Shown: one piece after another, positions 7,277-64,000 of the stretch
Layout: each line of letters opens with the position of its first letter
How positions within the stretch are numbered: the first letter of the stretch is position 1
DNA from: an uncultured Thermoleophilia bacterium
GTDB taxonomy: Bacteria > Actinomycetota > Thermoleophilia > UBA2241
Length of the DNA stretch: 64,000 bases
Direction of reading: 5' to 3'
Assembly: GCA_964533575.1 (NCBI GenBank)
Contig: CAZHMG010000006.1
Span: 51 to 64,050 of the forward strand
The notes under the pieces: generated by a model
Database searches by the model: none
Seen by the model: only the letters and a program-made list of their open reading frames with translations
Told to the model about the DNA's origin: nothing
Made by a program: the position numbers and the translations under genes

Positions 7277-7389
7277 GTGATTGTGCAAGAGTCGGTCACT
7301 TCATCGGGTAGGGTATACGTCGTCCTGCCCGGAGCCAAACGATGGCGGGACGCGCTGGGCGGCTCAGTCCCTCCGCGTACAATGCTGGT

Positions 7390-8637: not shown

Positions 8638-8722
8638 AGCACGCGCGGCCGCGTCTCTGGTTGCGCTTCCGCCTGTAAAGGGGTACACGGTATGGTGGAG
8701 TATTCCTCGGGAAGGAGACGGC

Positions 8723-20593: not shown

Positions 20594-21048
20594 GACTCGG
20601 CCCTCACTCCGCCGGCCGCGACTGCCACTTCGGGACGCATCGCGGCTGAGTCCGCCCGCTTCAGGGGCGGCAAAGCCTGGATGGTCCGGTCCATCTCCTT
20701 CACCGCCGCGACAAACCGTGGCGGCTCCCCGGCGCTCATGGTGAACATTCGGCATCGTTCCGGCTCGACCCCCACGCTGGTCAGCAGCCGCTGCACGAAC
20801 TTGACCCGGTCAATGGCGTTGAAGTTGCCTTCGCGGTAGTGGCACTGCCCCTCGAGACAGCCCGCCACCATGACGCCGTCCGCGTTCTCGGCCAGCGCCG
20901 CCAGAATATGCATTGGACTTACGCGCCCCGTGCAGGGCATGAGCACGAGGCGCACACTCGGGGGGAGAGAAGTCCGCGAGTTGGCGCTGGCATCGGCCGC
21001 CGCGTAGGCGCACTCGCGGCAGCAGAAGGCGACGATGGAGCGGTCCAT
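20584..21048 (-). CDS. mvhD: MvhD/FlpD-family [2Fe-2S] subunit
   Basis: IVAFCCRECAYAAAD, MPCTGRV, ADGVMVAGC..GQCHY..GN, MSAGE. TGATG overlap at 21048. Confidence 0.9.
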   Translation of the reverse strand: MDRSIVAFCCRECAYAAADASANSRTSLPPSVRLVLMPCTGRVSPMHILAALAENADGVMVAGCLEGQCHYREGNFNAIDRVKFVQRLLTSVGVEPERCRMFTMSAGEPPRFVAAVKEMDRTIQALPPLKRADSAAMRPEVAVAAGGVRAESCR

Positions 21049-36028: not shown

Positions 36029-37438
36029 TCAAGCCCGCGTTCTCCCGACAGCGACTCTGTCGAGAGTCGCGGACAGCTCCTCTCGTGTCGATGTGGAGAG
36101 GGCGAATTCACGCGGAGCCTCAACGAGCTCGCGCGTCCGCTCCCGCAGGCGCTCGCCGAGCGTCCGGCTGCCGGCCGCTTCCCAGCGATCGTAGACGGTG
36201 TGATCGAAGAGCCGGGTGTGCCAGAAGTCGCGGAGATGCCGCCGTGTGTATTTGGTGGCGAGGTGGTTGCCGCCTGGTCCAACGGCGGCAATCTCGCCCA
36301 GCGCCAGCGCTTCGTCGTCCAGTGAGACTTCCTGCATGAAGGCACGGGTCCAGCCCACCAGCTCGGCGCCCAGGACGATGCTCTCGTGCGAACTCTGCAA
36401 ACCCGACTCCATGTAGCCGACATCGTGCAACAACGTGCCCCTGGATAGCCCGCCGGCCAAGGCCGTCAAGGCGGCCTCAAGCGCCCACTGCTCGTCGAGA
36501 CCCTTGGCGTCGCCGCAGGCGGCGTAGTTGAAGCTCGGCAGCCCGTAGTGATGAGCCATGTCGCAGCCGAGTTGCTGGGCCAGAAACGGCTCCGGCGCGG
36601 CGTAGACCTCGGTGCCCGTACTCATGTCGATTGCGCCGGCGCCGGCGCCGTAGATGAACGGCGCGCCGGGGTTGACGTACTGGTGCAGGACGAGGCCGCT
36701 CAGCACCTCGGCGTTGCCGACGACGACCGCTGCCGCCACCGATCTCGGGGCGGTCGTGCCGCAGTTCGGCGCCGGGGCGTAGATGAGCGGCACCTGCAGC
36801 TCCGCGCAGCGCACGACCTTGCTCAAGGCGTCCCGGTCGTGCATGAGCGGCGGGGAGGGCATGGCGTAGATGGCGATGCTCTCGCGTTCGCCGCACGCGC
36901 CGGCCATGCCGACGAGATCGTCCAGCACGTCGCCGTCCCTGGGCGCCACGATGAGCGGCTTACCGGTCCCCGCCAGCATGGCCGCCACCGGCGCGAGGTC
37001 ATCGACCGCGAGCGGGACGTCCTCCGGCAAGCCCATCGACATGACGAAGTCCAGCTGTGGAAGCTTCTCCGTCAGAGCCGCCATCGACTCGATATCGTCC
37101 ATGCGCGCGCGCCGCCGCCGCCCGGTCACCAGGTCCTGATGGTAGAGGCAGTCAGAGCCGGTTCCATAGAACACGTTGCCGTCGGCCAGTTCGAGGACTT
37201 CATCCCGGCCACGAGACTTGAGCATCCATCGCGAGGGCGAGCTGCGCAGTGCATCGTCCACGAGCTCACCGTTCAGACGGACTCGATCGCCGTCCACTTG
37301 CGCTCCAAGCGCGCGGAAGAGATCCCGGCCCTCGTCCCAGTGGACCGCCACGCCGACCTCCGACAACACCTGCAGGGTCGCCTCGTGCACTCGCGCGCAC
37401 GCGGCATCGTCCCAGACCCTCAGAAACGCGCTGTACAT
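36029..37438 (-). CDS. Trimethylamine methyltransferase (MttB) superfamily protein, non-pyrrolysine
   Basis: VHEATLQVLSEVGV, TAPRSVAAAVV.GNAEVL, GLP, DAK..D.Q..E, LHDVGYMESGL..S.E, FL..T..H-like end. No internal TAG. Confidence 0.88.
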   Translation of the reverse strand: MYSAFLRVWDDAACARVHEATLQVLSEVGVAVHWDEGRDLFRALGAQVDGDRVRLNGELVDDALRSSPSRWMLKSRGRDEVLELADGNVFYGTGSDCLYHQDLVTGRRRRARMDDIESMAALTEKLPQLDFVMSMGLPEDVPLAVDDLAPVAAMLAGTGKPLIVAPRDGDVLDDLVGMAGACGERESIAIYAMPSPPLMHDRDALSKVVRCAELQVPLIYAPAPNCGTTAPRSVAAAVVVGNAEVLSGLVLHQYVNPGAPFIYGAGAGAIDMSTGTEVYAAPEPFLAQQLGCDMAHHYGLPSFNYAACGDAKGLDEQWALEAALTALAGGLSRGTLLHDVGYMESGLQSSHESIVLGAELVGWTRAFMQEVSLDDEALALGEIAAVGPGGNHLATKYTRRHLRDFWHTRLFDHTVYDRWEAAGSRTLGERLRERTRELVEAPREFALSTSTREELSATLDRVAVGRTRA

Positions 37439-40849: not shown

Positions 40850-40949
40850 GCGAAGGCCAGGAGCGTCATGATGCCGTCGCGGTTGCGGCGATCGGACGTC
40901 CGGCTCAGCGTCTCGGGTGTCGACGCGCCGACCCTCGCCCGGCCCTCGA

Positions 40950-40978
40950 TTGACCGCCGCATGCCACGGTTGTAGCCT
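40950..40978 (+). promoter_or_regulatory. Promoter of the cob operon
   Basis: TTGACC-17 nt-TAGCCT directly upstream of the riboswitch. Confidence 0.65.
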
Positions 40979-40982
40979 TCAT

Positions 40983-41122
40983 GCGTTGTCTCTCAGCCGC
41001 TGGGAAGCCGGTGCAATGCCGGCGCTGCCCCGCAACTGTAGGCGCGGACGACCGCCGCACTCAGCCACTGTCATCGGACGGGAAGGCGCGGCCAGTAGGA
41101 CGAAGCGCGAGCCAGGACACCA
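40983..41122 (+). ncRNA. Cobalamin (B12) riboswitch
   Basis: GGGAA-GCCGGTGCAATGCCGGC-GCTGCCCCGCAACTGTA ... GCCACTG ... GGGAAGGCG ... AGCCAGGACACC. It sits upstream of corrinoid genes. Confidence 0.92.
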
Positions 41123-41165
41123 TGGCTGGGGGAGCATCGCGACAGAGCCTCGAGGGAGGGCTGCG

Positions 41166-41906
41166 GTGGGATTCGAGGATCGACTCATCCTCGTCACGGG
41201 CGGGGCCCGTAGCGGCAAGAGCAGGTATGCCGAACGGCTCACCGCCATGGTGGCGGAAGGGGCACAGGGTTCCCGCGACGGGGTGATAGAGCCATGCCGC
41301 GTCGTCTACCTGGCGACGTCCGAAACGAACGACGAGGAGATGGCGGCGCGCGTCGCCGCTCATCGTGCGTCCCGCCCTGCAGGCTGGACAACTGTCGAAT
41401 GCCCGGTCGAGGTGCCGGCAGCGCTGCGCGCCGAGACGGCCACACGGGGTCCTGCCGTCTTCCTGCTCGACTGCGTAACCTTCTGGGTGAGCAATCTCAT
41501 CTTCGCCGGTGGCGACCTTGGCGGGACGGACCCTGGCGAGGACTTCAACTACGACAAGTCCCTGCTGACGGCGCGGCAGGAGACGGAAGCGGCCAGCCGG
41601 GTGGAGCACGCCGTCGACGATCTGCTTGCGGCGCTCTCCGGCACCGGATCCACGCTGATCGCGGTGTCCAATGAAGTCGGCCTCGGCGTCGTCCCGGAGT
41701 ATCCTCTCGCGCGTCTCTATCGAGACCAGCTGGGCTGGGTGAACCAGCGCCTGGCACTCGAGGCCGAGCATGTCTACTTTCTCGTTTCTGGCCTGCCGCT
41801 CGACGTGAAACTGCTGGCGGCGCCGCTTTCCTCGCCGTCGCGGACGGCCGTCCGGCTCCGTTCGACCGAATCCCTCCCCCGACCCTCGTCCAAGGAGACC
41901 CAGTGA
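41166..41906 (+). CDS. cobU: Adenosylcobinamide kinase/adenosylcobinamide-phosphate guanylyltransferase
   Basis: LVTGGARSGKS.YAE, YLATS, EM..RV..HR, LLDCVT, VSNEVGLG, RDQLG.VNQ. GTG 41166 after GAGGGAGG. Confidence 0.93.
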   Translation: MGFEDRLILVTGGARSGKSRYAERLTAMVAEGAQGSRDGVIEPCRVVYLATSETNDEEMAARVAAHRASRPAGWTTVECPVEVPAALRAETATRGPAVFLLDCVTFWVSNLIFAGGDLGGTDPGEDFNYDKSLLTARQETEAASRVEHAVDDLLAALSGTGSTLIAVSNEVGLGVVPEYPLARLYRDQLGWVNQRLALEAEHVYFLVSGLPLDVKLLAAPLSSPSRTAVRLRSTESLPRPSSKETQ

Positions 41907-42988
41907 TCTCGCCGCTTGAGCACACCATCAGTCAGATCCGGCCGCTGGATGCCGAGGCAATGCAAGCGGCGGAGGCGCGACAGATGCAGCTCACCAAGCC
42001 CCCGAGGGCGCTTGGGCGTCTGGAATCGCTCTCCATCCGCCTTGCCGGCATCAAGGCGGTGCCGCTACCGAGAATCGAACACAAGGCCATCGCCGTCATG
42101 GCCGCGGACCACGGCGTCACCGCGGAAGGCGTGAGCGCTTTCCCGCCCGAGGTGACCCCCGCGATGGTGCTGAACTTCGCTGCCGGCGGGGCCGCCATCA
42201 ACGTGATCGGGCGCCACGTGGGTGCGCGCGTGATCGTCACGGATGTCGGCGTGAACGCCGATCTGTCCGGCACGCGCGGGGTTCGTCACAGGAAGATCCG
42301 TATGGGGACAGCCAACATGGCCGATGGTCCGGCGATGACGCGCGACGAGTGTCTCGCGGCAATCGCCGTCGGCATGGAGCTCGTCGAGGAGGAGGTGGCT
42401 GAGGGCCTCGACATCATCGCGACGGGTGAGATGGGCATCGGGAATACAACCGCAGCCTCCGCCGTGATCGCTGCTCTCACCAGCGCGCCAGTCGCACTGG
42501 TGACAGGACGCGGAACCGGCATCAGCGCGGAGGCATTGCCCGCGAAGGTGGCCGTCATCGAGCGGGCGCTCGCCGTGAATCAGCCAGATGCCGGCGACCC
42601 GGTCGACGTGCTCGCCAAGGTCGGCGGGCTGGAGATCGCCGCCATGACGGGCGTGTTCCTCGGTGGTGCCGCCCATCGAACGCCGGTCATCATGGACGGC
42701 TTCATCAGCGCGGCCGCCGCATTGGCGGCCGTCCGCCTTTGTCACGAATGCGTCGACTACATTCTCCCCAGCCACGTGAGCATCGAGATCGGGCATCAGG
42801 TAGTGCTTGACGAACTTGGCCTGACGCCCCTCTTCGATCTGCAGATGCGCCTCGGCGAGGGCACCGGCGCAGCCCTCTCGATGAGCATCATCGAGGCCGC
42901 GGCCCGCATCCTTGCCGATATGGCGACGTTTGAAAGCGCCGGAGTGGCAGGCGATCCGAACGCGGTCCACGCAGAACTCCGCAGCTGA
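41903..42988 (+). CDS. cobT: Nicotinate-nucleotide--dimethylbenzimidazole phosphoribosyltransferase
   Basis: LTKP..ALGRLE, AADHGV, GGAAIN, GEMGIGNTT, GRGTG, DGFIS, MRLGEGTGA. Confidence 0.95.
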   Translation: MISPLEHTISQIRPLDAEAMQAAEARQMQLTKPPRALGRLESLSIRLAGIKAVPLPRIEHKAIAVMAADHGVTAEGVSAFPPEVTPAMVLNFAAGGAAINVIGRHVGARVIVTDVGVNADLSGTRGVRHRKIRMGTANMADGPAMTRDECLAAIAVGMELVEEEVAEGLDIIATGEMGIGNTTAASAVIAALTSAPVALVTGRGTGISAEALPAKVAVIERALAVNQPDAGDPVDVLAKVGGLEIAAMTGVFLGGAAHRTPVIMDGFISAAAALAAVRLCHECVDYILPSHVSIEIGHQVVLDELGLTPLFDLQMRLGEGTGAALSMSIIEAAARILADMATFESAGVAGDPNAVHAELRS

Positions 42989-43006
42989 AGCGCCCTGCCG
43001 CGGTCA

Positions 43007-43858
43007 ATGGAGGACGGCGCCGAGAATATGCGACCAGACGGGCTCGACAGCGGAGCCGCGCCCGCGCATGAGTGGGCCGGCGGCCGCGTCAGACACGCCA
43101 CCCTCGCGGTTACGTTTCTGACCGGCATTCCGCTGCGGCAGCGAGGCGAGTCGCGTCCTGCCGACCTGTGGCGCAGCATGGGCTGGTACCCGCTCGTGGG
43201 CCTGATGCTCGGCGCCGCGGCATGGGGAGCCTACTCGATCCTCATCGTGATTCTGCCGGGCCTGGTGGCCGCCGCCACCGTGGTTCTTCTGCTCGAGGTC
43301 GTCACGCGCGGCCTGCACATGGATGGGCTCATGGACACGGCGGACGGTCTGTTCAGCGGTGCACCCCGTGATCGCGCTCTGGAAATCATGAAGGACAGCC
43401 ACGCCGGCGCCATGGGCGTTCTCGCTGCGATCCTGGTCGTCACGCTGAAGATCACAGCCTTGGGCTCGCTGGCCGGTCCGGACGCCGCGCTTCCCCTGAT
43501 CGCGGGGTGGGCGATTGCGCGAGCGCTGCCCCCGCTGGACGTGTACATTTGGCCGTATGCGAGGCCGGCTGGCACTGGTGAGGCTTTCACCAGGGAGCGG
43601 ACACTGGGCCCGGTCGCGCTGGCAGGTGGGTTCGTCGCGCTCGCGCTCGTTCTGGCCGGGGTCCTGGCCTCGGGGATCGGTGGCGCGGGCAGCTGGTGGG
43701 GCGGGATTGTCATGGCGGGGGCGTGTCTTGCGGTGGTCCTCGGCGTGCATGTCGTCGTCGCGAAGCGCCTCGGTGGCTTGACTGGCGACGTCTACGGCAT
43801 GGGCGTCACGCTGGCCGAGACGATCGCGCTCGTTGTCGGTTGCGCTCTGGCGCAGTGA
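43007..43858 (+). CDS. cobS: Adenosylcobinamide-GDP ribazoletransferase (cobalamin synthase)
   Basis: FLT.IP, TRGLHMDGLMDTADG, IMKDS.AGAMG, GGLTGDVYG. The start may be ATG 43028. Confidence 0.93.
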   Translation: MEDGAENMRPDGLDSGAAPAHEWAGGRVRHATLAVTFLTGIPLRQRGESRPADLWRSMGWYPLVGLMLGAAAWGAYSILIVILPGLVAAATVVLLLEVVTRGLHMDGLMDTADGLFSGAPRDRALEIMKDSHAGAMGVLAAILVVTLKITALGSLAGPDAALPLIAGWAIARALPPLDVYIWPYARPAGTGEAFTRERTLGPVALAGGFVALALVLAGVLASGIGGAGSWWGGIVMAGACLAVVLGVHVVVAKRLGGLTGDVYGMGVTLAETIALVVGCALAQ

Positions 43859-43875
43859 CGTCAGGAAGGGACGGG

Positions 43876-44607
43876 ATGAGACTCTATCTTGTGAGGCACG
43901 GAGCCTCGACGGGAAACACTCCGGGGAATCTTCTCGGGCATGCGCCTCATCCGCTCACTCCCGTCGGTATGGTCCAAGCCCGCGCCGTGGCCGCGCGTTT
44001 GGCGCCGCTGGGACCGATGCCGGTCTATTGCAGCGACCTTCTGCGGGCGCGCCAGACCGCGGAGTGCATCGCCGCCGTGTGGCCGTCCGCGTTGCCGGGA
44101 GAAGCGGACGGCGTCGCTGTTCTGCCCTTGGACGACCCAAGACTTCGGGAGCTCGACCTCGGCCGTTTCGAGGGACGCTCGTGGGACGAGTTCCTCGGCG
44201 ACGAGGAGTTGAATGCGGCGATGATCGCCGACCCGCTTCACACTGCGTTGCCTGGCGGCGAGTCACTGGCGCAGATGAAGGAGCGCGTCCTCGCAGCGAT
44301 CGACGACATCGTCGCCCGTCACGCCGCTGAGGCCGGCACACCTCCGCCCTCGACGCGGGCTTCGGTTCCGCTCGGTGCTCTCACTCCGGCCGGGTCTGAT
44401 GTCGCGGTCTGTGTCGTCGCTCACGACGGCCCCCTCAGAGTCATCCTGAACCACTTCCTTGGGGTGCTGCCCGAGAAGTGGTGGGCGCTGACGACAACGC
44501 ACGGAGGCCTTTCGATGCTCGAGTGGTCGAACGGCTGGGTGAACGTCCGCTTCGTGAACGGGACCAGCCACCTTGCAGGTGTCGGCGGGAAGACCAGCTC
44601 GTCATGA
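43876..44607 (+). CDS. cobC: Histidine phosphatase, probable alpha-ribazole phosphatase
   Basis: LYLVRHG, SDLLRARQTA, LRELDLG.FEG, PGGES, VAHDG. Located inside the cob operon. Confidence 0.8.
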   Translation: MRLYLVRHGASTGNTPGNLLGHAPHPLTPVGMVQARAVAARLAPLGPMPVYCSDLLRARQTAECIAAVWPSALPGEADGVAVLPLDDPRLRELDLGRFEGRSWDEFLGDEELNAAMIADPLHTALPGGESLAQMKERVLAAIDDIVARHAAEAGTPPPSTRASVPLGALTPAGSDVAVCVVAHDGPLRVILNHFLGVLPEKWWALTTTHGGLSMLEWSNGWVNVRFVNGTSHLAGVGGKTSSS

Positions 44608-45551
44608 TGCTCGCGCCGTACGATTGGCCGATGGCGCTTGCGATGGTGCTGCTCGCAGGCGTGCTCGACGTCGCCTTTGGCGAACCGCCGGCCCGTCTTC
44701 ATCCCGTGGTCTGGCTGGGGCGGCTGATCGGCGCCATCGAAGCGCGGCGGCCGCACTGCAGGCCGCGCCAGGAGCTTGCCTACGGCGTCCTCATCGTGGT
44801 CGTCGTGGTTTCCGTCTCCGTCGCCGCGGGCCTGTTGCTCGTCGTCGTGATGAGGTGGCTGCCGTGGTTCTTTGCGCTACCGCTGGGCGCCGTCATTCTC
44901 AAGACCACCTTCTCCCTCCGAGGGCTGGTCGCGGCGGCCAACGAGGTACGGCGCGCCCTCGTCGGCGACCTCGACGCTGCTCGTGCCAGCCTTGTCGCGC
45001 TGGTGAGCCGGGACCGCGAGCTGGACTCCCCAGGCATCGTCTCTGCCACTGTCGAATCTCTTGCGGAGAACCTCGTCGACAGCGTCGTCTCGCCGTTGCT
45101 GTACTTCGCGCTGTTCGGTCTGCCGGGAGCGCTTGCTTACCGCGCCGTCAACACGATGGACGCGATGATCGGCTACCGGGGCGAGTACGAGTTCGTCGGC
45201 AAAGCGGCAGCGCGTTCGGATGACGTCCTCAACTGGATCCCGGCGCGCCTCACGGGGCTGCTGCTCGTGGCCTTGGCCTCGGTGCGTGGCACGGCGCGGA
45301 TCGCATGGACAACACTGCGCAGCCAGCGGCATCTCTCCGACAGCCCGAACAAGCTCTGGACGATTGCCCCGATGGCAGGCGCCCTGCGGGTGCGGCTGTG
45401 TCGCCCCGGATCGTATGCGGTCGGTCAACCCGTTCGTCCCCTCACCACAGCCGTCATCGGCGAGGCGGCTGCCTTGGTCTGGGCTGGCGGCGGGATCGTC
45501 ATCAGCGCCGCCGCCGCGCTCTCCGCCTTCGTCGCTTGGGCAGTGTGGTGA
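44604..45551 (+). CDS. cbiB: Adenosylcobinamide-phosphate synthase
   Basis: D..FGEPP..LHPVVWLG, ARASL..LVSRD, ESLAEN..D, YRAVNTMDAMIGY, DD.LNWIPARL, SPN. Confidence 0.93.
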   Translation: MMLAPYDWPMALAMVLLAGVLDVAFGEPPARLHPVVWLGRLIGAIEARRPHCRPRQELAYGVLIVVVVVSVSVAAGLLLVVVMRWLPWFFALPLGAVILKTTFSLRGLVAAANEVRRALVGDLDAARASLVALVSRDRELDSPGIVSATVESLAENLVDSVVSPLLYFALFGLPGALAYRAVNTMDAMIGYRGEYEFVGKAAARSDDVLNWIPARLTGLLLVALASVRGTARIAWTTLRSQRHLSDSPNKLWTIAPMAGALRVRLCRPGSYAVGQPVRPLTTAVIGEAAALVWAGGGIVISAAAALSAFVAWAVW

Positions 45552-45554
45552 TCG

Positions 45555-46637
45555 GTGCGCAGAGTCGCTGCTGCGGTGCACGGCGCCGTCGATCCGCAAG
45601 CGCTGCTCTCCGAGGGCGTGAGCCCCGAGGACATCATTGATTTCAGCTCCAATCAGGCCCCCGCCGGTATCGCCGCGGAGGTCGCGAGGGCCGTGCGGGC
45701 CGCCAGGTTCGACGCCTACCCGGATCCCCGAGCCTTCGACTTCTGCAGGGCGGCGGCTGCCCGTCACGGCGTGGGCGAGAGTTGTGTGGTGGCAGGCAAC
45801 GGTACGACGGAGCTGATTCGGCTCATTGCACAGCTCACACTCGGACCCGGCGATGTCGCAATGTCGCTGGCGCCTTCGTTCGGCGAGTACGTGGTCGCGA
45901 CGGCGCTCACGGGCGCTCGCCTGTCCGAAGTGCGACTCGTGAGCACTGGTGCCGGCGACGGCTTTCACTACGAAAGCGGCGCCGTCGCGGCGGCGCTAGA
46001 GGAGATGGCGCCGCCTCTCTGCTGGATCTGCTCCCCAAACAACCCCACCGGCGCCCTGGTGTCTCCCGCGGAGATCGTCTCTCTCGTCCGCGGGCATCCC
46101 GGAACGCTGTTCGTGCTCGACGAAGCGTACTGCGACCTGCTGGCGGAACCGCAGTGGTCAACGGAGCTCCTCGGCGGCGGCAATCTCGTCGTGCTCCGGT
46201 CGATGACCAAGGTCTGGGGTCTCGCGGGTCTACGCCTCGGGTACGCTCTCGCCCACGAAGAGGCGGCTGCGGCGCTGCGCGCCGCAGCTCCGCCTTGGAG
46301 CGTGAATGCGTGCGCTCAAGCCGCCGGCGTGGCCTGCTTCCGAGAAGCTGGACATTACCGGCGCAGCATGGACCTCTTGCTAAGCGAGCGCGATCGCATG
46401 ACAGGTGCGCTACGGCGGTCAGGCTGGATCGTTGAGCCGTCCCAAGCCGGCTTCTTCCTCGTGAGGGTGGGAGACGCCATGGCGACGAGGCGACGCCTGC
46501 TCCAGCACGGGCTCCTGCTGAGGGATTGCGCCTCGTTCGGCCTGCCTGACTGTCTGCGGCTCAGTCCTCGCGGTCCTGGCGATAACGACCGCCTCCTCGC
46601 CGCCTTCGCCACGCTGCACCCGGCCACGTACCACTGA
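45555..46637 (+). CDS. cobD: L-threonine-O-3-phosphate decarboxylase (PLP, HisC-like)
   Basis: VHGA, DFSSN, YPD, GNGTTELI, CSPNNPTG, DEAY, LRSMTK.WGLAGLRLGY. Located in the cob operon. Confidence 0.82.
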   Translation: MRRVAAAVHGAVDPQALLSEGVSPEDIIDFSSNQAPAGIAAEVARAVRAARFDAYPDPRAFDFCRAAAARHGVGESCVVAGNGTTELIRLIAQLTLGPGDVAMSLAPSFGEYVVATALTGARLSEVRLVSTGAGDGFHYESGAVAAALEEMAPPLCWICSPNNPTGALVSPAEIVSLVRGHPGTLFVLDEAYCDLLAEPQWSTELLGGGNLVVLRSMTKVWGLAGLRLGYALAHEEAAAALRAAAPPWSVNACAQAAGVACFREAGHYRRSMDLLLSERDRMTGALRRSGWIVEPSQAGFFLVRVGDAMATRRRLLQHGLLLRDCASFGLPDCLRLSPRGPGDNDRLLAAFATLHPATYH

Positions 46638-46694
46638 CAGGCGCCGGTTCACTGCTCTCACCGCGCCCAAGCGAAGTCCGAGCGCTGGCCTGCA

Positions 46695-46724
46695 TTGACG
46701 CTCAGCTGTTCGGGTTGATAGTCT
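46695..46724 (+). promoter_or_regulatory. Promoter of the fur-DUF71-btu operon
   Basis: TTGACG-18 nt-TAGTCT with an extended TGn motif. Confidence 0.6.
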
Positions 46725-46734
46725 CTCTCAAAGA

Positions 46735-46755
46735 GAATGAGAAACGTTCTCATTC
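46735..46755. promoter_or_regulatory. Fur-box-like operator
   Basis: Perfect palindrome GAATGAGAA-ACG-TTCTCATTC between the promoter and the fur start. It resembles the AATGATAATCATTATCATT Fur-box pattern. Confidence 0.75.
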
Positions 46756-46773
46756 CGAGAAGGAAGGCCGGAT

Positions 46774-47211
46774 GTGAGCGGAGTGATGCCGCAGGATATC
46801 GAGGAACTGTTCCGCTGCAAGGGCATCCCGTTCACCCGGCAGCGTCACTTGATCTGGGAGTACTTCGCCGCCGGCGATCGGGCGGCTACGATCGCCGAGG
46901 CGGCAGAGGCTCTGCGCGACTCCGATGTCGGTCAAGCCACTGTCTACCGTACCGTGACCCTTCTCTCAGACCTTGGTCTGCTGGCCCGAGTTCAGGATCG
47001 CGGCGGGCAAATCTGCTACACCGCGCCGCCCATCGGCCACAGCCACCCACTCGTCTGCGGGATCTGCCGTCGCGTTGTTCGTTTCGACGGCGACGGCGAT
47101 GTCGCGGCACTGGAAGAGCATCTGTCCGCAACGACGGGCTTCTCCATCTATGGCCACCATCTCGAGGTGTACGGCATCTGCCCTGACTGTCGCGAAGCGA
47201 ACGAGCGATGA
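46774..47211 (+). CDS. Fur-family transcriptional regulator (atypical metal sites)
   Basis: T.QR..I, VGQATVYRT..LL, HSHPLVCGIC, GHHLEVYGICPDC. Confidence 0.9.
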   Translation: MSGVMPQDIEELFRCKGIPFTRQRHLIWEYFAAGDRAATIAEAAEALRDSDVGQATVYRTVTLLSDLGLLARVQDRGGQICYTAPPIGHSHPLVCGICRRVVRFDGDGDVAALEEHLSATTGFSIYGHHLEVYGICPDCREANER

Positions 47212-47912
47212 CGGAAGGGGAGCTGAAGGGCAGACGATTCTTCTGTTCGTGGAGCGGCGGTAAGGACGCGTGTCTCGCGCTGCATCGGGCCGTTGCCGCC
47301 GCGGGCAGGCCTGTCGCTCTCCTGTGCATGCTGCAGGAGGACGGCGTGTCGAGCCGCGGTCACGGCCTGCCGCTGAGCGTCCTTGAAGCCCAGGCGGCGG
47401 CACTCGGGCTTCCGCTCATGACGAGGGCGACGAGCTGGGCTGAGTACGAACGACACTTCCTCGATGCCGTGCGGGAGCTTCGCGCCCAAGGCGTTGAAGC
47501 CGGCGTCTTCGGTGACATCGACCTGCAGGAGCATCGCGACTGGGTGGAGGCTGTGTGTGCCGAGGTGGGACTGTCCTGCCATCTGCCGTTGTGGCATGAG
47601 CCGCGGCGGCGGCTCGTGGAGGAACTCATCAGCTCCGGCGTATCCGCCACCGTCGTCGCTGTCGATGCCTCCAGGCTCGGCGAAGAGTTCCTTGGCCGAA
47701 CCGTCGACTCGGCGCTCGTCGCCGACCTTGTCGCCTCCGGCGCAGACGTCTGCGGCGAGGAAGGCGAGTATCACACCGTGGTGACGACCGCGCCTCTCTT
47801 TCGAGCGCCTGTTTCTCTGCGCTGGCATGGCCACGAGCAGCGCGACGGTCATTGGGTCCTGAGATTTGATTCCGTTCATTCAACAGATCGTCGAGGGGGT
47901 TCCGATTCATGA
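47208..47912 (+). CDS. DUF71/diphthine--ammonia ligase-like PP-loop ATP pyrophosphatase
   Basis: SWSGGKDA, SRGHG, QA.ALGLP, VFGDID, PLW, FLGR, D.CGEEGEYHT.V. Confidence 0.88.
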   Translation: MTEGELKGRRFFCSWSGGKDACLALHRAVAAAGRPVALLCMLQEDGVSSRGHGLPLSVLEAQAAALGLPLMTRATSWAEYERHFLDAVRELRAQGVEAGVFGDIDLQEHRDWVEAVCAEVGLSCHLPLWHEPRRRLVEELISSGVSATVVAVDASRLGEEFLGRTVDSALVADLVASGADVCGEEGEYHTVVTTAPLFRAPVSLRWHGHEQRDGHWVLRFDSVHSTDRRGGSDS

Positions 47913-48877
47913 ACGTGCTGCGCCTGCGTCGCCCAACCATCCGCGTCATTGTCCTGCTGGCAGCTCTCGCCCTGATCGCTGCCGCCGCCCTCGTCTCAGG
48001 CGGGTGTGGGGCGAGTGATGCGGCCGGCTTGAGTCCTTCTCCATCTGCCTCATCCGGCCCCATCACCGTGACCGATGACGGGGGCGAAGAAGTCACGCTT
48101 GCGGAGCCTGCCGAGCGCGTTGTCAGCCTCGCTCCCGCCAATACGGAGATGGCATACGCCATCGGCGGCGGGGACAAGATGGTGGGCGGCACCAGCTATG
48201 ACGACTACCCGGAAGATGCGAAGGCGTTGCCCAAGATCGGCGACTTCTCCAGCCCGAGCACTGAGCGCATTGTTGCGATGAAGCCCGACCTCGTGCTGGC
48301 GGCTGGCGGCATCCAAGCCGGCCTCCGCAGCAAATTGGAGAAGCTCGGCATGGAGGTGTATGTCATAGACCCCTCCACCTACGAAGCTGCGGTAGACGAC
48401 GTCCGTGAGCTCGGGCAGCTCATGGGTGTACAGGCTCAAGCCGAACAGGTCGCGCAAGACATGGAAGCCGCGGCGGTCGACGTGACGGCGAAGGTGGGAT
48501 CTCTCGACAAGGCGGTGACGTTCGTGGAGATCTACAGCCAGCCTCTCATGACCGCTGGCTCAGATTCTTTCATCGCCGACCTCGTGGCTCGCGCAGGAGG
48601 CGTCAATCTGGGAACCTCCGCAGGCCCGGGCTACCCGACGTTCAGCAGCGAAACCCTGATCACTGAGGACCCAGCCGTCTACATCGCCGTCTCCGGGGCG
48701 CAGAGCACACCGGGGGAGATCGCCGACAGACCTGGGTACGCGGGCTTGAGCGCCGTCAAGAACGAACGCGTCTACGTTATCGAGGACAACCTCATCGCGC
48801 GGCCTGGTCCGCGGCTGGCGGAAGGTCTGCAGCAGCTCGCCCAGATGATTCATCCAGAGGCGTATCAGGCCCAGTGA
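47909..48877 (+). CDS. Cobalamin/iron-chelate ABC substrate-binding lipoprotein (BtuF-like)
   Basis: Lipobox SGGC, VTDDGG, RVVSLAPANTE, E.IVAMKPDLV, RPGPRL. Confidence 0.88.
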   Translation: MNVLRLRRPTIRVIVLLAALALIAAAALVSGGCGASDAAGLSPSPSASSGPITVTDDGGEEVTLAEPAERVVSLAPANTEMAYAIGGGDKMVGGTSYDDYPEDAKALPKIGDFSSPSTERIVAMKPDLVLAAGGIQAGLRSKLEKLGMEVYVIDPSTYEAAVDDVRELGQLMGVQAQAEQVAQDMEAAAVDVTAKVGSLDKAVTFVEIYSQPLMTAGSDSFIADLVARAGGVNLGTSAGPGYPTFSSETLITEDPAVYIAVSGAQSTPGEIADRPGYAGLSAVKNERVYVIEDNLIARPGPRLAEGLQQLAQMIHPEAYQAQ

Positions 48878-49869
48878 TCGGGCGGGCACGCATTGGGGGC
48901 GGGCTTGGCCTTGCCCTTGCGGTCCTTCTGTTTGTGGCGTGTCTGATAGCGTCACTCCTGTTCGGCCCGGCCTCGCTACCGCTCGGTGAGCTCGTCGAGC
49001 ACATCCGTACGGGGCCGGGCGCGGACACCGCGGGGTCTGTCATCTTCTGGGAGATCCGCCTGCCGCGCGTTCTGCTGGCGTTCCTGGTAGGCGCGTCACT
49101 CTCGGTGGCCGGCGTTATCCTGCAGGATCTGTTTCTGAATCCGCTCACCGACCCGTACGTCACGGGGGTGTCCTCGGGGGCGGCGCTCGGGGCCACTATC
49201 GGCATCGTCTTGAAGCTCGCGCCGCTGCCCTGGGTCACGGTGCTCGCTCTGGCCGGCGGTTTCGCGACGCTCGCCGTGGTCTGGGTGGCGGCCCGGCGCC
49301 GTGGCAGGATCGACATCTACGTCCTGCTGCTGGCTGGAGTAACCATTTCCTACCTGGTCACGGCCGCCATCAGCGTGATGATGATTCGTGCGGGCGAGGA
49401 CATGTACGCGATCGTCTACTGGCTCCTTGGAAGCTTCAGCGGGCGTACCTGGCAGGAGGTGCAGGTCGCTCTGTTCGTCCTGCCGTTCCTGGTCGTGCCG
49501 TTCTTCTTCCTTGACGAGATGGACATTCTCCTGCAGGGGGAGAAGCGGGCCCTCGAGCTGGGTGTCGAGGTCGAGCGGGCCAAGCGCATTCTGCTGGTCA
49601 CGGCGGCGGCACTCACGGCGATTGCCGTGAGCGTGTCCGGCATCATCGGCTTTGTCGGCCTCGTCGTACCTCATATCGTACGGCTCCTGGTGGGCCCGGG
49701 GCACCGCCGCCTGATTCCCATCGCCCTGCTGGGCGGCGCCGCGCTGATGGGAATCGCCGACCTGTTGTCCCGCACGATGTTTGCGCCGACAGAGGTACCG
49801 GTCGGCGTCGTCACGACGTTCGTCGGCGCGCCGCTGTTCGTCTACCTGCTGCGGAGAAGGCGGGCATGA
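48874..49869 (+). CDS. FecCD/BtuC-family permease
   Basis: IRLPRV, NPL.DPY..GVSSGA, GIIGFVGLVVPH, EVPVGVVT..GAP.F. Confidence 0.92.
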   Translation: MIGRARIGGGLGLALAVLLFVACLIASLLFGPASLPLGELVEHIRTGPGADTAGSVIFWEIRLPRVLLAFLVGASLSVAGVILQDLFLNPLTDPYVTGVSSGAALGATIGIVLKLAPLPWVTVLALAGGFATLAVVWVAARRRGRIDIYVLLLAGVTISYLVTAAISVMMIRAGEDMYAIVYWLLGSFSGRTWQEVQVALFVLPFLVVPFFFLDEMDILLQGEKRALELGVEVERAKRILLVTAAALTAIAVSVSGIIGFVGLVVPHIVRLLVGPGHRRLIPIALLGGAALMGIADLLSRTMFAPTEVPVGVVTTFVGAPLFVYLLRRRRA

Positions 49870-51104
49870 GCGGCGCACCGTCGACGGCCCTGATCTCCGT
49901 TCGTGATCTGAGCTTCGCCTACGACGCGCGTCCGGTCCTCAAGCGCGTCTCGTTCGAGGCCGAGGCGGGCGACTTCGTCGGCGTGGTCGGTCCCAACGGG
50001 AGCGGGAAGAGCACCCTGCTCGACCTGATTGACGGTGTGCTCAGACCGGCGTCGGGCCAGGTGGAGGTCGCCGGACGGCCCACGGATGCCTACAGGAGAC
50101 GCGACATGGCGCGTCAGGTCGCCCTGGTCCCACAGCATTTCGCCCTCGAGTTCGACCTCGGCGTCCGAGAAGTCGTGGAGATGGGCGCGTACTGCCGCGC
50201 CGGGGAGGGCGGTTCGCAGGACGAGGCTGAGCAGATGCTTGCGCGGCTAGGTGTGAGCGGGCTGATCGATCGCCGCTTCTCCGAGCTCTCGGGCGGCGAG
50301 AAACAACTCGTCGTCCTCGCCCAGGCCCTGATGCAGGGGGCGCCTCTGCTGCTGCTCGACGAACCCGCCTCCGCGCTCGACGTCTCCCACCAGCTACGAC
50401 TGTTCGACCTGCTCAAGAAGCTCAACGCGGACGGCCTGACGGTCGTGTGCGTGCTCCACGACCTGAACCTCGCTCTCCACTACTTCGACCGGCTGCTCGT
50501 CTTCTCTGATGGCGAGGTGGCGGCATATGGTCCTCCCGAGGTGGTGCTGCGGCCGGAGATCGTGGAGGCCGTTTACGGCATACGGGCGTTCCTGCACAGA
50601 CATGCCGGCCGCACGTATCTGACATTCTCGCCTCGCGCTCGGGGTGAGCGCCGGGGCCGGGTGCATGTCATCTGCGGGGGCGGCACCGGGTCTGGCCTGA
50701 TGCGCGACTTGGTAGACGCCGGATACGACGTATCCGCCGGCGTCCTCAACGCTCTCGATACCGATGAGGAGACAGGGCGGGAGCTAGGCTTGCCGATGGC
50801 CGTCGAAGCGCCGTTCTCGCCCATCGGCGATGAGACGCACCGCGAGAATCTGGCGCTCATCGACGCCGCGGAAGTCGTGGTCGTCGCGGCCGTTCCCGTG
50901 AGCCACGGCAACGAGCGCAATCTCGTCGCGGCCCTGCAGGCGGCCGCCGCCGGCAAGCCGGTCTGGGTCGCATCCGGCATTTTCGACAGTGACTTCACAG
51001 GGATGACCGCGAGTCTGGCGACTGCCGGCGTGCAGTTCTATGGCCTGCAGTCCGAACTGTTCTCTGCGCTGAAGAGCCGCCCGGATCAGTGCTATCCGAG
51101 CTGA
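49866..51104 (+). CDS. BtuD/FecE-type ATPase with a roughly 150 aa C-terminal extra domain
   Basis: GPNGSGKS, LSGGEKQ, LDEP...LD, LHDLN. The extension has VHVICGGG.G, SAGVL...DTD, PFSPI and GNERNL. Confidence 0.9.
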   Translation: MSGAPSTALISVRDLSFAYDARPVLKRVSFEAEAGDFVGVVGPNGSGKSTLLDLIDGVLRPASGQVEVAGRPTDAYRRRDMARQVALVPQHFALEFDLGVREVVEMGAYCRAGEGGSQDEAEQMLARLGVSGLIDRRFSELSGGEKQLVVLAQALMQGAPLLLLDEPASALDVSHQLRLFDLLKKLNADGLTVVCVLHDLNLALHYFDRLLVFSDGEVAAYGPPEVVLRPEIVEAVYGIRAFLHRHAGRTYLTFSPRARGERRGRVHVICGGGTGSGLMRDLVDAGYDVSAGVLNALDTDEETGRELGLPMAVEAPFSPIGDETHRENLALIDAAEVVVVAAVPVSHGNERNLVAALQAAAAGKPVWVASGIFDSDFTGMTASLATAGVQFYGLQSELFSALKSRPDQCYPS

Positions 51105-58640: not shown

Positions 58641-59060
58641 GTGCAACAGTGCTCGTCGAAAAGCGACTACGCGATAAAGGCGCTGGTGTGTCTTGCTTTG
58701 GACGGCGGTGACGAGCCGGTTCAGGCGCGGCGGATCGTCGCCTTCGCGGGCATCCCTCCGAAGTACCTCGACCAGGTGATGCATGACCTCCGGCACGGCG
58801 GCTTGGTCGAGAGCAGACGTGGCTCCGGCGGGGGCTATGTCTTGGCGCGCCCCCCCGAGAAGATCAGCTTCCTGGATGTGACTGATTTGATTGACGGCTC
58901 GCATGGCGGTAAAGGTCGAATGCGTGACGGCGGCCAGGCGGAACTCCTGGTCACACCCGTGTGGGACGAGGCGAGGGAGTGCCTGCGCCGGATCCTTCGC
59001 TCGGCGACGATTGCCGACGCGGCGGCCCGCGCCTCCACCGAACCGATGTATCACATCTGA
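58641..59060 (+). CDS. Rrf2-family regulator without Fe-S cysteines (CymR-like)
   Basis: [38 protein letters not shown]-terminal MYHI. GGAGG RBS before GTG 58641. Confidence 0.88.
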
Positions 59061-59071
59061 CAGGAGACCCC

Positions 59072-60370
59072 ATGAGCTCAAATAATGCACCGACGTTCAC
59101 CGGGTTCGAAACGCTCGCGCTTCATGCCGGCCAAGAGCCTGACTCGGCGACGAATGCCCGCGCAGTGCCCATCTACCAGACCACATCCTACGTGTTCAAC
59201 GACGCGGAGCATGCCGCCGACCTCTTCAGCCTGCGGCAGGCGGGAAACATCTACACGCGCATGATGAACCCCACGACGGATGTGTTCGAGAAGCGGGTCG
59301 CCGCTCTCGAGGGGGGCGTGGGCGCGTTGGCCTTCTCATCTGGTTCTGCAGCCATCACCTTCGCCGTTCTCAACATCGCCGGCGCCGGCGATCACATCGT
59401 CAGCGCCAACAGCCTGTACGGTGGCACGTACAATCTCTTCGTGCACACGCTGCCACGCTTTGGACTCGAAATCGACCTTGTGGACCCGGCTGATCCCCAG
59501 AACTTCCGGCACGCGATCAAGCCCAACACCAAGGCGATCTACGCCGAAACCGTCGGTAACCCGAAGCTCGACACGCTGAACATCAAAGCCGTCGCGTCGG
59601 TCGCCCACGAAGCGGGCATTCCCCTCATCATCGACAATACCCTGACGACGCCCTATCTCGTGCAGCCGTTCGACCATGGCGCGGACATCATCGTGCACTC
59701 AGCCACGAAGTTCATGGGCGGCCACGGTACGTCCATCGGCGGCGTGGTTGTCGATGGCGGCTGCTTCGACTGGACACAGAACGACAAGTTCCCGGGACTC
59801 GTCGAGCCTGATGTCAGCTATCATGGACTGAGGTTCTGCGAGGCGCTGGGATCGGCCGCCTATATCGTCAAGCTGCGTGTCAGCCTTCTGCGCGACATCG
59901 GAGCGGCGCTCTCCCCGTTCAACGCGTTCCTTCTCTTGCAGGGTCTGGAGACTCTGCCGCTTCGCATGGAGCGCCACAGCGCCAATGCCTTGCGGGTGGC
60001 GCAGCACCTCGAGCAGCACCCGAACGTGAGCTGGGTGAGCTATCCCGGGCTTGCGTCTCACCCTGCGCATGAAACGGCGCGCACGTACCATCATCGCGGC
60101 CTCTACGGGGCGATCATAGGGTTCGGCATCAAGGGCGGGCGTGAGGCGGGACGCCGCTTCGTCGAGAGCACCACGCTGCTGTCGCACCTCGCCAACATTG
60201 GGGACGCCAAGTCTCTCGTCATTCATCCGGCCACGACGACACATTCGCAGCTGAGCGCAGAGGAGCAACTGCTGGCCGGAGTGAGCGATGACTTCGTCCG
60301 TCTCTCGATTGGTCTCGAGACGATCGGAGACATCCTCGAGGACATCGACCTGGCCCTCGCTCCGGCGTGA
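59072..60370 (+). CDS. metY: O-acetylhomoserine aminocarboxypropyltransferase (sulfhydrylase)
   Basis: [60 protein letters not shown]. Confidence 0.95.
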
Positions 60371-60491
60371 CGGTCATCGCCTGGGCCGTGCCGAGGAGGA
60401 ATGAGGGAAGGCGCACGATGTGCGCCGCGCGTAGAATGGGGGACGGGCGGCTCGTTCACGCCGCCGATCCTTCCTCCGTCCGCAGCAAGCA

Positions 60492-61697
60492 ATGACCGAC
60501 GCCAGAGACAAGCTGACCAAAGAGATCGGCGACGTGCCGATCGGTACGGGCGACGACGTCGCCTCGGCCGGTATCGTCAGCCCCCAGTTCGTCACCTTCT
60601 CCCAGCCGACCGAGCGTCTTAAGCTGGAGGGCGGCGGCCGACTCGGTCCGTACACGCTGGCCTATCAGACCTACGGGAACCTCAGCGAGCGCCGTGACAA
60701 CGCCATCCTCGTCACTCATGCCTTGTCGGGGGATGCACATTGCGCGGGACTTCACCAAGCCACGGACAAACGTCCAGGCTGGTGGGACATGATGGTTGGT
60801 CCCGGCAAAGCTCTGGACACCGACAAGTACTTCATCATCTGCTCGAACGTGATCGGCGGCTGCAGCGGCTCCACAGGTCCATCCTCCATCAACCCAGCCA
60901 CGGGTCGGCCCTTCGGCACCGACTTCCCCATCATCACCATCGGCGACATGGTGAATGCCCAAGTCATGCTGATCGACCACATGGGCATCAGCAAGCTGCT
61001 CGCCGTGGTGGGCGGCTCCATGGGCGGCATGCAGGTGCTGGAATGGGCGATCTCACACAGTGGCCGGCTGCATCTCTGCGTGCCACTTGCAACAGCCGCG
61101 CGGCAGCCGACGCAGGCAATAGCCTTCAACGAAGTCGGCCGCCAAGCCATCATGGCCGATCCAAATTGGAGTGAAGGCCACTACTACAGCGGATCTGCGC
61201 CGGCCAAGGGCCTCAGCGTCGCGCGTATGCTGGGTCACATCACCTACCTCAGCGACGAGGCCATGCAGGAGAAGTTCGGACGCCGGCTGCGGAACATCCA
61301 CGATTATTCGTTCACGTTCTCGGCCGACTTCGAGGTTGAGAGCTACCTGCGCTACCAGGGGTTGTCGTTCACGGACAGATTTGATGCGAACACGTATCTC
61401 TACATCACTCGAGCGCTCGATTACTTCGACCTTACCAGGCAGCACGGGAGCCTTGTGCAGGCCTTCCGAGGTGTCAGGGCCCGCTTCCTCGTGCTGGGTT
61501 TCACGAGCGACTGGCTGCATCCGCCCTATCAGCTCAAGGAGATCGTGAGCGCGTTGCGGGCCAGTCACAAACACGTGAGCTACTATGAAGTCGAGAGCCA
61601 TTATGGCCACGACGCCTTCTTGCTCGAGCGCGAGAAGATGGAAGGTGTCGTCGCCGCCTTCCTGGCCAGTGGCGCCCGCACCTACTCTCTCGGCTGA
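60492..61697 (+). CDS. metX: Homoserine O-acetyltransferase
   Basis: HALSGD.H, GWWD..VGPG, SNVIGGC.GSTGP, GGSMGGMQ, ARM..HITY, YGHDAFLLE. Confidence 0.95.
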   Translation: MTDARDKLTKEIGDVPIGTGDDVASAGIVSPQFVTFSQPTERLKLEGGGRLGPYTLAYQTYGNLSERRDNAILVTHALSGDAHCAGLHQATDKRPGWWDMMVGPGKALDTDKYFIICSNVIGGCSGSTGPSSINPATGRPFGTDFPIITIGDMVNAQVMLIDHMGISKLLAVVGGSMGGMQVLEWAISHSGRLHLCVPLATAARQPTQAIAFNEVGRQAIMADPNWSEGHYYSGSAPAKGLSVARMLGHITYLSDEAMQEKFGRRLRNIHDYSFTFSADFEVESYLRYQGLSFTDRFDANTYLYITRALDYFDLTRQHGSLVQAFRGVRARFLVLGFTSDWLHPPYQLKEIVSALRASHKHVSYYEVESHYGHDAFLLEREKMEGVVAAFLASGARTYSLG

Positions 61698-61701
61698 TCA
61701 C

Positions 61702-62298
61702 ATGCGACGGATCGACTACGCGCTGATCGAAGGCCTCGTCCCGACGGGGGCGACCGTTCTTGATCTCGCCTGTGGAGACGGAGAGCTGCTCCACGAGCTC
61801 ATGACCACGAAGAGAGTGCACGGCAGCGGGGTCGAGGTCTCCAAGGAAGCCGTTGAAGCGTGTGTCGGCAAAGGTCTGTCGGTGTTCCACGGCGACCTCG
61901 ATGAGGGTCTGGCCGACTTTGCCGATGGGTCACACGACGTCGTCATCCTGAGCATGAGTCTGCAGCAGCTGCGTCGGCCGCGAATGATCGTTCGCGAGAT
62001 GGCGCGCGTCGGAAGTCGATGCATCGTCAGTTTCCCGAACTTCGCTCACTGGGTGCCGCGAGTGCAGCTTGCCCTGGGCGGGCATATGCCGGTGTCTCGG
62101 GAGTTGCCGTACGAGTGGTGGGATACCCCCAACATACACCTCTGCACCATCAAGGACTTCCGCGGGCTCTGTCGGCAGGAGGGGTTCGTGATCGAGCAGG
62201 AACTCTTCCTCACGAACGTCCGAAAGGAGCCGTCCCGTCGCGTACTCGCCCCCAATCTCATGGCCCGTATCGCCATCTTCCTGGTCCGTCGCCAGTGA
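61702..62298 (+). CDS. metW: Methionine biosynthesis protein MetW
   Basis: VLDLACGDGELL, GDLDEGL..F.D.S.D.VILS, SFPNFAHW, WWDTPNIHLCTI.DF. Confidence 0.92.
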   Translation: MRRIDYALIEGLVPTGATVLDLACGDGELLHELMTTKRVHGSGVEVSKEAVEACVGKGLSVFHGDLDEGLADFADGSHDVVILSMSLQQLRRPRMIVREMARVGSRCIVSFPNFAHWVPRVQLALGGHMPVSRELPYEWWDTPNIHLCTIKDFRGLCRQEGFVIEQELFLTNVRKEPSRRVLAPNLMARIAIFLVRRQ

Positions 62299-62444
62299 CG
62301 CCAGCAAACTTTGTGACGACGTTCAAAGGGGCTACACTGTGGGTACGCTTTGCGCCCCGAAGACCGGCGTGAGTGTCACAGGGGGGCGCCATCCAGCCCT
62401 CCAGTGCGACAAGTGGATGCGCCGCGAGACAGAAGGAGACAGAA

Positions 62445-63779: not shown

Positions 63780-63814
63780 AGTCCGAGAGTACACGGGAAA
63801 AACGGGAGGGCAGA

Positions 63815-64000
63815 ATGCTCAGCGAGGGAGACAAGGCTCCGGCGGTGATCGGCACCTCGTATGACGGCAGGACGTACAACCTCGGGGCTCCCGGGAAGCC
63901 GACGGTCCTCTGGTTCTATCCAAAGGCGGCGACCGGCGGTTGAACCACCGAAGCCGTTGAGTTCAACGGCCTGCTGGAGGAGTTCGAGCGCGTGGGGGTG
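63815..64000 (+). CDS. BCP/AhpC-TSA peroxiredoxin with selenocysteine at the peroxidatic position (3' end outside window)
   Basis: MLSEGDKAP..VLWFYPKAATGG-TGA(63941-63943)-TTEAVEFNGLLEEFERVGV matches the BCP motif FYPKxxTPGCTTEA. The frame stays open after the TGA. GGAGG RBS. Confidence 0.85.
63953..63970 (+). promoter_or_regulatory. Bacterial SECIS-like hairpin
   Basis: GCCGTTG-AGTT-CAACGGC begins 9 nt after the TGA. The loop starts 16 nt after the TGA and has G at position 2, followed by U. Confidence 0.75.

Follow-up and report, generated by a model that had tools for sequence, protein, structure and literature searches.

Does an in-frame TGA in a peroxiredoxin-like reading frame end the gene, or does it specify an amino acid? 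The question is raised by the end of a 64,000-nucleotide stretch of DNA from an uncultured Thermoleophilia bacterium (contig CAZHMG010000006.1), the whole of which is referred to below as the window. An earlier note on this DNA had proposed that a frame starting at position 63815 encodes a selenocysteine (Sec) peroxiredoxin of the BCP family, with the TGA at its catalytic position. The results described here make it very probable that the locus is one intact, mis-annotated gene for a 152-amino-acid cytoplasmic BCP/PrxQ peroxiredoxin in which Sec is the peroxidatic residue. The selenoprotein proposal is supported by the alignment of the TGA with catalytic Cys codons, by its conservation, by the constraint on a hairpin that follows it, and by purifying selection that is equally strong on both halves of the gene.

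The first 62 codons of the gene lie at 63815 to 64000 on the plus strand, and the gene runs past the window edge. From the ATG at 63815, which is preceded at a distance of 5 nucleotides by a Shine-Dalgarno-like GGGAGG (63804 to 63809, plus strand), the frame translates as MLSEGDKAPAVIGTSYDGRTYNLGAPGKPTVLWFYPKAATGG-TGA-TTEAVEFNGLLEEFERVGV and is open up to base 64000, so that the coding-like sequence which the earlier note had followed to the window edge is indeed there. The TGA is codon 43 (63941 to 63943, plus strand) and stands where the earlier note had placed it, on the peroxidatic Cys of the BCP motif; the read-derived contigs and the orthologues described below point to it as a Sec codon. 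It closes a PxxxTxxU active-site motif, P36-K-A-A-T40-G-G-U43 (63920 to 63943, plus strand), that aligns with FYPKDSTPGC of Xanthomonas BCP. TGA is also the stop codon of 38 of the 48 confidently called genes in the window, and it is thus an ordinary stop there, indicating that the genetic code has not been reassigned.

Read-derived sequence gave the same codon. The stretch containing the gene was present in four rock-metagenome runs, and Logan contigs from three of them (X1, X2, and X4) cover 63941 to 63943 with zero differing letters, so the TGC or TGT that reads might have revealed, and that would have spoken against a selenoprotein, is not what they contain. Runs X1, X2, and X4 possibly include the sample or samples behind the window assembly. 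Therefore, these contigs exclude an assembly slip but do not amount to independent biology.

The open reading frame (ORF) listing from which the earlier note was made had missed the gene, as that note remarked, and the public record does not show it whole either. The public annotation splits it into a 42-amino-acid N-terminal piece (P0124) and a separate 93-amino-acid ORF (P0030) that are in frame with each other. An NCBI contig of 69,529 nucleotides carries P0124 together with the 215-amino-acid metallo-beta-lactamase (MBL)-fold protein, the 401-amino-acid hydrolase, and the 630-amino-acid RecQ of the window. P0030 is found in NCBI only, is a singleton, and lies on one contig of exactly 69,529 nucleotides; its N terminus, MGV, matches GTG GGG GTG at 63992 to 64000, in frame with the ATG at 63815. 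A 506-nucleotide Logan contig that starts at 63949 was aligned to the orthologous locus L001 at 80% likeness and re-aligns to the conserved gene downstream of the peroxiredoxin there. Its two aligned parts are 359 nucleotides apart, versus 323 in L001, a spacing that fits three extra C-terminal residues and a short spacer. The C-terminal 93 residues were assigned through the shared 69,529-nucleotide contig, the singleton status, the first three codons, and this spacing. With them the gene would span 63815 to about 64273 and encode 152 amino acids, and the concern that the frame might close soon past the window edge is answered by 93 more codons that complete the enzyme. The alignment of rock-metagenome contigs to L001 at this likeness did not yield the sequence past 64000, and the exact 41-mer of the window end had no match in metagenome contigs. 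A search for contigs encoding the 215-amino-acid neighbor returned only one 1.1-kb Logan contig, and the ferredoxin and P0030 returned no record. As a separate observation, 42-amino-acid pieces from other genomes cluster with a Cys-form peroxiredoxin, P0002.

The same TGA recurs in related genes. Screening one genome for each species turned up no copy of the genome under study but gave four orthologues (L001 to L004; 69 to 79% identity) in metagenome-assembled genomes (MAGs) of Thermoleophilia and Actinomycetes, all with TGA at the same codon, and a metagenome scan added four more (L082 to L085; 70 to 78% identity). All eight Sec orthologues carry both the TGA and the hairpin, and they read through to 149-amino-acid proteins. 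Upstream of the peroxiredoxin, L001 to L004 have the same gene order (MurB, a pyridoxal phosphate [PLP]-dependent Cys/Met enzyme, an alpha/beta hydrolase, a small protein, a cold-shock protein, an MBL-fold protein, and a ferredoxin), which identifies them as orthologous loci. Two Cys-form loci, L141 and L144, share the cold-shock and MBL-fold genes upstream and also the HD-domain gene that directly follows the BCP gene. An alignment with Cys-containing homologues, which the earlier note had suggested as a check, places the TGA on the catalytic Cys of these syntenic orthologues. In L001, from a long-read MAG, the alignment breaks into two parts, with a change of frame between them, in each of the PLP enzyme, hydrolase, and MBL-fold genes (6468 to 9911), probably as a result of assembly indel errors rather than because they are pseudogenes.

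Over a wider set of 138 related loci, the aligned codon is TGA in 51 and TGC or TGT in 87. Among the TGA forms, 46 are complete single-domain genes for BCP-like proteins of 122 to 164 amino acids, and four loci end at a contig edge. L032, from a Chloroflexia MAG (gene starting at 10001), differs in size: read-through gives a 426-amino-acid ORF, apparently a fusion in which a peroxiredoxin domain is followed by about 280 C-terminal residues with no assigned function. A search across 5.8 billion proteins returned 280 matches, and the figures given here are from the 120 that were listed. Of the 120 matches listed, 118 are fragments of 81 to 113 amino acids that all start at residue 44 or later, right after the UGA. 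Only two of the 120 are full length, and both are Cys forms: P0002 (81% identity, FFYPKAATGGCTTEAKEF) and P0003 (70% identity, FFYPRASTGGCTTEAVEFNGL). Both sit in the same gene neighborhood as the Sec gene.

Selection acts on the two sides of the TGA to the same degree. Across seven orthologues, the median ratio of nonsynonymous to synonymous substitution (dN/dS) was 0.24 for codons 2 to 42 and 0.22 for codons 53 to 149, with dS near 1, which is near saturation. A ratio of 0.22 downstream of the TGA, with synonymous change saturated, indicates that the downstream part is translated in frame.

The earlier note had described a perfect 7-bp hairpin with an AGUU loop 9 nucleotides after the TGA, and folding recovers it as GCCGUUG-AGUU-CAACGGC at 63953 to 63970 on the plus strand (stem, 63953 to 63959 paired with 63964 to 63970; loop, 63960 to 63963). 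The bacterial Sec insertion sequence (SECIS) is a hairpin just after the UGA with a guanosine in a small apical loop (PMC1088965). The stem-loop found here likewise stands directly 3' of the UGA, with a G in its four-base loop, which begins 16 nucleotides past the TGA. Its codons, GAA GCC GTT GAG TTC AAC GGY, are constrained beyond what the protein requires. When codons that were invariant in amino acid across the orthologues but able to vary synonymously were counted, six of seven in the hairpin were also invariant in nucleotide, compared with 9 of 62 elsewhere in the gene (Fisher P = 2.6e-4). The sole varying codon, GGC or GGT, retains pairing through a G-U pair. The rare A- or T-ending codons GAA and GTT are kept in the hairpin in a genome with about 80% G+C at third codon positions, the third positions of the gene family being 80 to 98% G+C.

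A hairpin at this place is a general feature of the Sec forms. Family-wide, every distinct Sec form has one 4 to 16 nucleotides after the UGA; the loops begin 11 to 25 nucleotides after it (16 to 21 in all but three), and G is nearly always loop base 1 or 2, as in the loops AGUU, GUU, and CGUGAUC. Relative to shuffled sequences, the 48 nucleotides after the codon fold better in Sec forms (median z, -1.23) than in Cys forms (-0.29; P = 6.6e-6). The 32-mer that holds the hairpin (63947 to 63978) stands out in runs X1 and X2, where contig depth goes up from 8x to 76x over it, and one loose contig end reads ...WFYPKANTS and then the same GGT-TGA. The depth spike and the loose end indicate that sister genes with this UGA and this hairpin are present in several further organisms of that rock.

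The joined 152-amino-acid protein belongs to the peroxiredoxins by its domain matches (PF00578, 100.1 bits against a cut-off of 26; PF08534, 65 bits). The catalytic Arg is present as well: AKR(113)TTWLID aligns with IERSTFLL of 5IIZ and 3GKK, and the residue is the same in all orthologues; in the protein under study, Arg113 lies in the C-terminal piece P0030 that we assigned by inference. Scores for the NCBI BCP equivalog (PRK09437) fall below its cut-off of 140 for both L001 (82.5 bits) and the Cys form P0002 (76.5 bits), and the PrxU equivalog (NF040737) scores 51.9 bits against a cut-off of 270. On these sequence comparisons, the protein is classed as a divergent branch of the BCP/PrxQ subfamily and as neither the E. 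coli-type equivalog nor a PrxU.

BCP proteins may have a resolving Cys at +5, in helix alpha2, or in helix alpha3, a residue that marks the atypical 2-Cys members rather than the subfamily as a whole, and neither site holds a Cys here. Codon 48 (63956 to 63958, plus strand), at the +5 position that is the resolving Cys site of CxxxxC-type BCPs, is GTT, the Val that the earlier note had read there, and the position of Xanthomonas Cys84 is Ala. L001 to L004 and L082 to L085 contain zero Cys. The only Cys in the protein under study is the nonconserved Cys128, where the orthologues have Tyr. These results uphold the earlier proposal of a 1-Sec enzyme, and by this analysis the protein would be a peroxiredoxin of the 1-Sec type. 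Other arrangements occur in relatives. Among the 118 fragments (P0004 to P0121), 45 have a Cys at position 144, in the VLADC of the last helix, where the gene under study encodes Ala144, and this Cys may be a resolving Cys in that sub-branch. Seven other fragments have a Cys in PLLCD that is absent here, and the Sec forms of another clade often have Cys at +5, as in UTRQGC.

How did Sec come to be in this branch? In a maximum-likelihood tree of 122 proteins, the clade of the gene, with eight Sec and two Cys forms, has support of 100/100 and lies on the canonical Cys BCP side of the tree. It is apart from a large Sec clade (33 Sec and two Cys forms, with PGUT.(E/Q)G.GFRD) and from a third, small Sec pair. 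The well-supported branches cannot be explained with fewer than three changes of state, and the two Cys forms are nested among Sec forms. The tree and the different hairpin sequences suggest that Sec was acquired independently in this clade and then reverted to Cys twice, a picture that fits the repeated Cys-to-Sec events published for peroxiredoxins (PMC1794560). The two syntenic Cys loci differ in the hairpin. L144 (2514 to 2963, TGC) keeps the hairpin letter for letter, as GAA GCC GTT GAG TTC AAC GGC, and has the look of a recent replacement of Sec by Cys that left the SECIS behind as a fossil. L141 (3001 to 3459, TGC) has lost the stem, now GAG GCG AAG GAG TTC AAC GCC, and the protein has changed there too.

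A mechanism consistent with these features can be proposed. The UGA at codon 43 would be read by Sec-tRNA(Sec) during translation, with SelB recruited by the in-gene hairpin GCCGUUG-AGUU-CAACGGC 9 nucleotides farther on. By analogy with peroxiredoxin chemistry, the Sec43 selenolate, activated by Thr40 and Arg113, would attack the peroxide and be converted to a selenenic acid. In the absence of a conserved resolving Cys, an external thiol reductant would have to recycle the enzyme, and it would do so, as in 1-Cys peroxiredoxins, by reducing the selenenic acid directly. The likely partner would be a thioredoxin-like or mycoredoxin-like protein, as for 1-Cys peroxiredoxins.

Several observations weigh against this interpretation. 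The hairpin by itself is weak evidence: a perfect 7-bp hairpin 5 to 15 nucleotides after a given codon has a P value of about 0.013 in this window, 20 of the 1,752 TGA triplets in the window have one at that distance, and the folding z-score is only -1.7. The hairpin was therefore rejected as sufficient evidence when standing alone. Its very invariance also means that there are no compensatory base changes within the clade. The 64-kb window has no tRNA gene detectable with ARAGORN or Rfam (the only Rfam match is a cobalamin riboswitch), no SelA, SelB, or SelD domain among 49 of its ORFs compared with Pfam, and no second selenoprotein gene in a scan for genes cut by an in-frame TGA and showing coding signal on either side. 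Finally, the tie of the C-terminal 93 residues to the window contig is one of inference and not of DNA read past position 64000. For the proposal as a whole, it is the comparative sequence evidence, and not the hairpin alone, that is decisive.

Some candidates that arose in these searches were set aside. The five candidates from the in-frame TGA scan of the window were off-frame or intergenic artifacts. None of the 145 fetched loci contained a tRNA-Sec or a convincing SelB or SelD. A "tRNA-???" call in L004 (7491 to 7574) had no Rfam support and was considered spurious. Tblastn with approximate E. coli SelD and SelB queries, run on the window and on every locus, matched GTPase domains only, and these lie inside a 903-amino-acid IF2-like ORF of Planctomycetota loci that is not SelB.

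The TGA might have arisen by nonsense mutation, so that the locus would be a pseudogene, or it might be an artifact of sequencing or assembly at a codon that is truly TGC or TGT. The public annotation, with a stop at the TGA and two small ORFs, agrees with such a view, and the contigs used for checking possibly come from the assembly's own samples. However, the TGA is in the contigs of three runs with no variant, it is shared by the eight orthologues, whose assemblies are independent, and by 51 of 138 related loci, and the downstream part evolves with a dN/dS of 0.22 while synonymous change is saturated. These results already contradict a mutation or an error, and we consider either explanation highly improbable. 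A functional split is an equally remote prospect: translation would terminate at the UGA and the two parts would be separate polypeptides of a split enzyme, the second made, for example, by reinitiation downstream. There is an in-frame GTG at 63992, which is the annotated start of the 93-amino-acid ORF. However, an enzyme split at this point would lose its catalytic residue, and its active-site loop would no longer be joined to the remainder of the thioredoxin fold. Moreover, no start codon or ribosome-binding site is conserved after the TGA, the annotated starts of the fragments scatter over residues 44 to 69, and the Cys orthologues are single polypeptides.

If the UGA is read through, the remaining question is what is inserted. 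The UGA and hairpin could be decoded without selenium, by a Cys-charged tRNA(Sec)-like tRNA or by near-cognate read-through with Trp or Cys that the hairpin would stimulate, to give a thiol peroxiredoxin. The 64-kb window offers no sel gene to argue otherwise, and the comparative evidence shows recoding rather than which residue enters; the identity of the residue as Sec is deduced from sequence comparison. Yet the family has many catalogued Sec members and the UGA falls precisely on its redox-active Cys, and the geometry of the hairpin and the G in its small apical loop match the description of bacterial SECIS elements. Furthermore, the Sec-to-Cys replacements within the clade use TGC, a codon change that would be pointless if UGA already gave Cys and that therefore counts against selenium-free decoding. 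Such decoding is considered very unlikely. A related idea, that the lineage does without canonical selA, selB, selC, and selD and decodes UGA through a Cys-charged tRNA(Sec)-like tRNA or a lineage-specific recoding factor, is very unlikely. Insertion of Sec into a single intact peroxiredoxin remains the favored interpretation.

Some other genes of the window were noted as well. A conserved module resembling methionine biosynthesis lies 5' of the peroxiredoxin gene (58961 to 61694) and is also present in L141 to L144. It consists of an O-acetylhomoserine sulfhydrylase-like Cys/Met PLP enzyme (58961 to 60367) and a MetX-like alpha/beta hydrolase (60492 to 61694). In relatives, a MetW methyltransferase is next in the module; here there is a 125-amino-acid ORF on the opposite strand (61933 to 62307) that has no Pfam match. 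A heterodisulfide-reductase-like cluster on the minus strand (16529 to 25366) comprises a 402-amino-acid Fe-S protein (16529 to 17734), an 815-amino-acid HdrA-like flavoprotein fused to an MvhD/FlpD domain (17721 to 20165), a 1118-amino-acid GltD/HdrA-like Fe-S flavoprotein (21051 to 24404), and a CCG-domain HdrB-like protein (24404 to 25366). HdrA and MvhD/FrhD are selenoproteins in some organisms; the ORFs in the window are uninterrupted, and the proteins of this cluster are thus Cys forms.

Cobalamin-related genes occupy 40917 to 51104. A cobalamin riboswitch (40949 to 41139, 88 bits) is followed by a cobU-cobT-cobS-cbiB-aminotransferase operon and then by genes for a BtuF-like binding protein, a FecCD permease, and an ABC ATPase (47909 to 51101). 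The longest CobU ORF overlaps the riboswitch, and the Pfam match to CobU begins at residue 91; the true CobU start is probably downstream of the riboswitch. The gene for a 469-amino-acid MttB-family (trimethylamine methyltransferase-like) protein on the minus strand (36032 to 37438) is free of in-frame TAG codons, and the protein is a non-pyrrolysine member of its superfamily, possibly a methyltransferase of the glycine-betaine type.

Sec peroxiredoxins (COG1225/PF00578, TxxU) have been a catalogued family of prokaryotic selenoproteins since 2004 to 2005 (PMC1088965, PMC1794560, PMC13188914). Twelve Sec peroxiredoxin genes were catalogued from bacterial genomes in 2006, when Actinobacteria were counted among three selenoprotein-rich phyla (PMC1794560), and 91 genes from 78 organisms were catalogued in 2016 (PMC5029168). 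A review of 2026 includes the family and gives its motif as PxxxTxxU (PMC13188914). The family has thus been known for about 20 years; the gene described here adds a member and leaves the current understanding of selenoproteins unchanged. No literature linking Thermoleophilia to selenoproteins or Sec peroxiredoxins was found, and the finding implies that Sec is used in this uncultured actinobacterial lineage of rock and soil. There is also a consequence for annotation, as at least 118 cluster representatives of the clade are stored solely as C-terminal fragments. The clade offers a clean, small example of Sec/Cys turnover, with its own SECIS and two nested Cys reversions. With one selenol and no resolving Cys, such a peroxiredoxin would be a simple system in which to compare the benefits of Sec and Cys, for example, in resistance to over-oxidation.

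Comparison with known systems places the protein among those catalogued Prx selenoproteins (TxxU). It has the same PF00578 fold, Sec at the peroxidatic site, a candidate SECIS just after the UGA, widespread Cys homologues, and a history of mis-annotation as a truncated protein. It differs from the large Sec clade (WFYPKAATPGUT.(E/Q)G.GFRD) in that its own clade is a separate branch (100/100) and its hairpin is built from different codons (AVEFNG). The SECIS of Escherichia coli fdhF is a coding-region hairpin that follows the UGA within a few nucleotides and has a small G-U-containing apical loop about 16 to 18 nucleotides from it. The hairpin found here has the same placement but another sequence and shows no evident bulged U; its binding by SelB is a prediction.

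The best structural match was the BCP/PrxQ of Xanthomonas campestris (3GKK, 5IIZ; E = 4e-19), in which FYPKDSTPGCTTEGLDFNALLPEF aligns with FYPKAATGGUTTEAVEFNGLLEEF of the protein under study and in which the conserved Arg and a GHA motif also align. The Xanthomonas protein is a Cys-based, atypical 2-Cys enzyme, whereas here Sec replaces the Cys, the Cys84 position is Ala, and the loop before the Arg is six residues shorter. A biochemically characterized precedent for Sec as the peroxidatic residue of a peroxiredoxin is the thioredoxin-dependent PrxU of Eubacterium acidaminophilum (Sohling et al. 2001, as cited in PMC13188914), although PrxU is a 233-amino-acid protein of the AhpC/Prx1-like subfamily. 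In the proposed reaction cycle, the protein resembles the 1-Cys AhpE of Mycobacterium tuberculosis (1XXU, 1XVW), a small related peroxiredoxin (E = 1.6e-14). AhpE uses Cys and belongs to another subfamily, but both enzymes would depend on one redox-active residue, without a resolving Cys, and on an external reductant.

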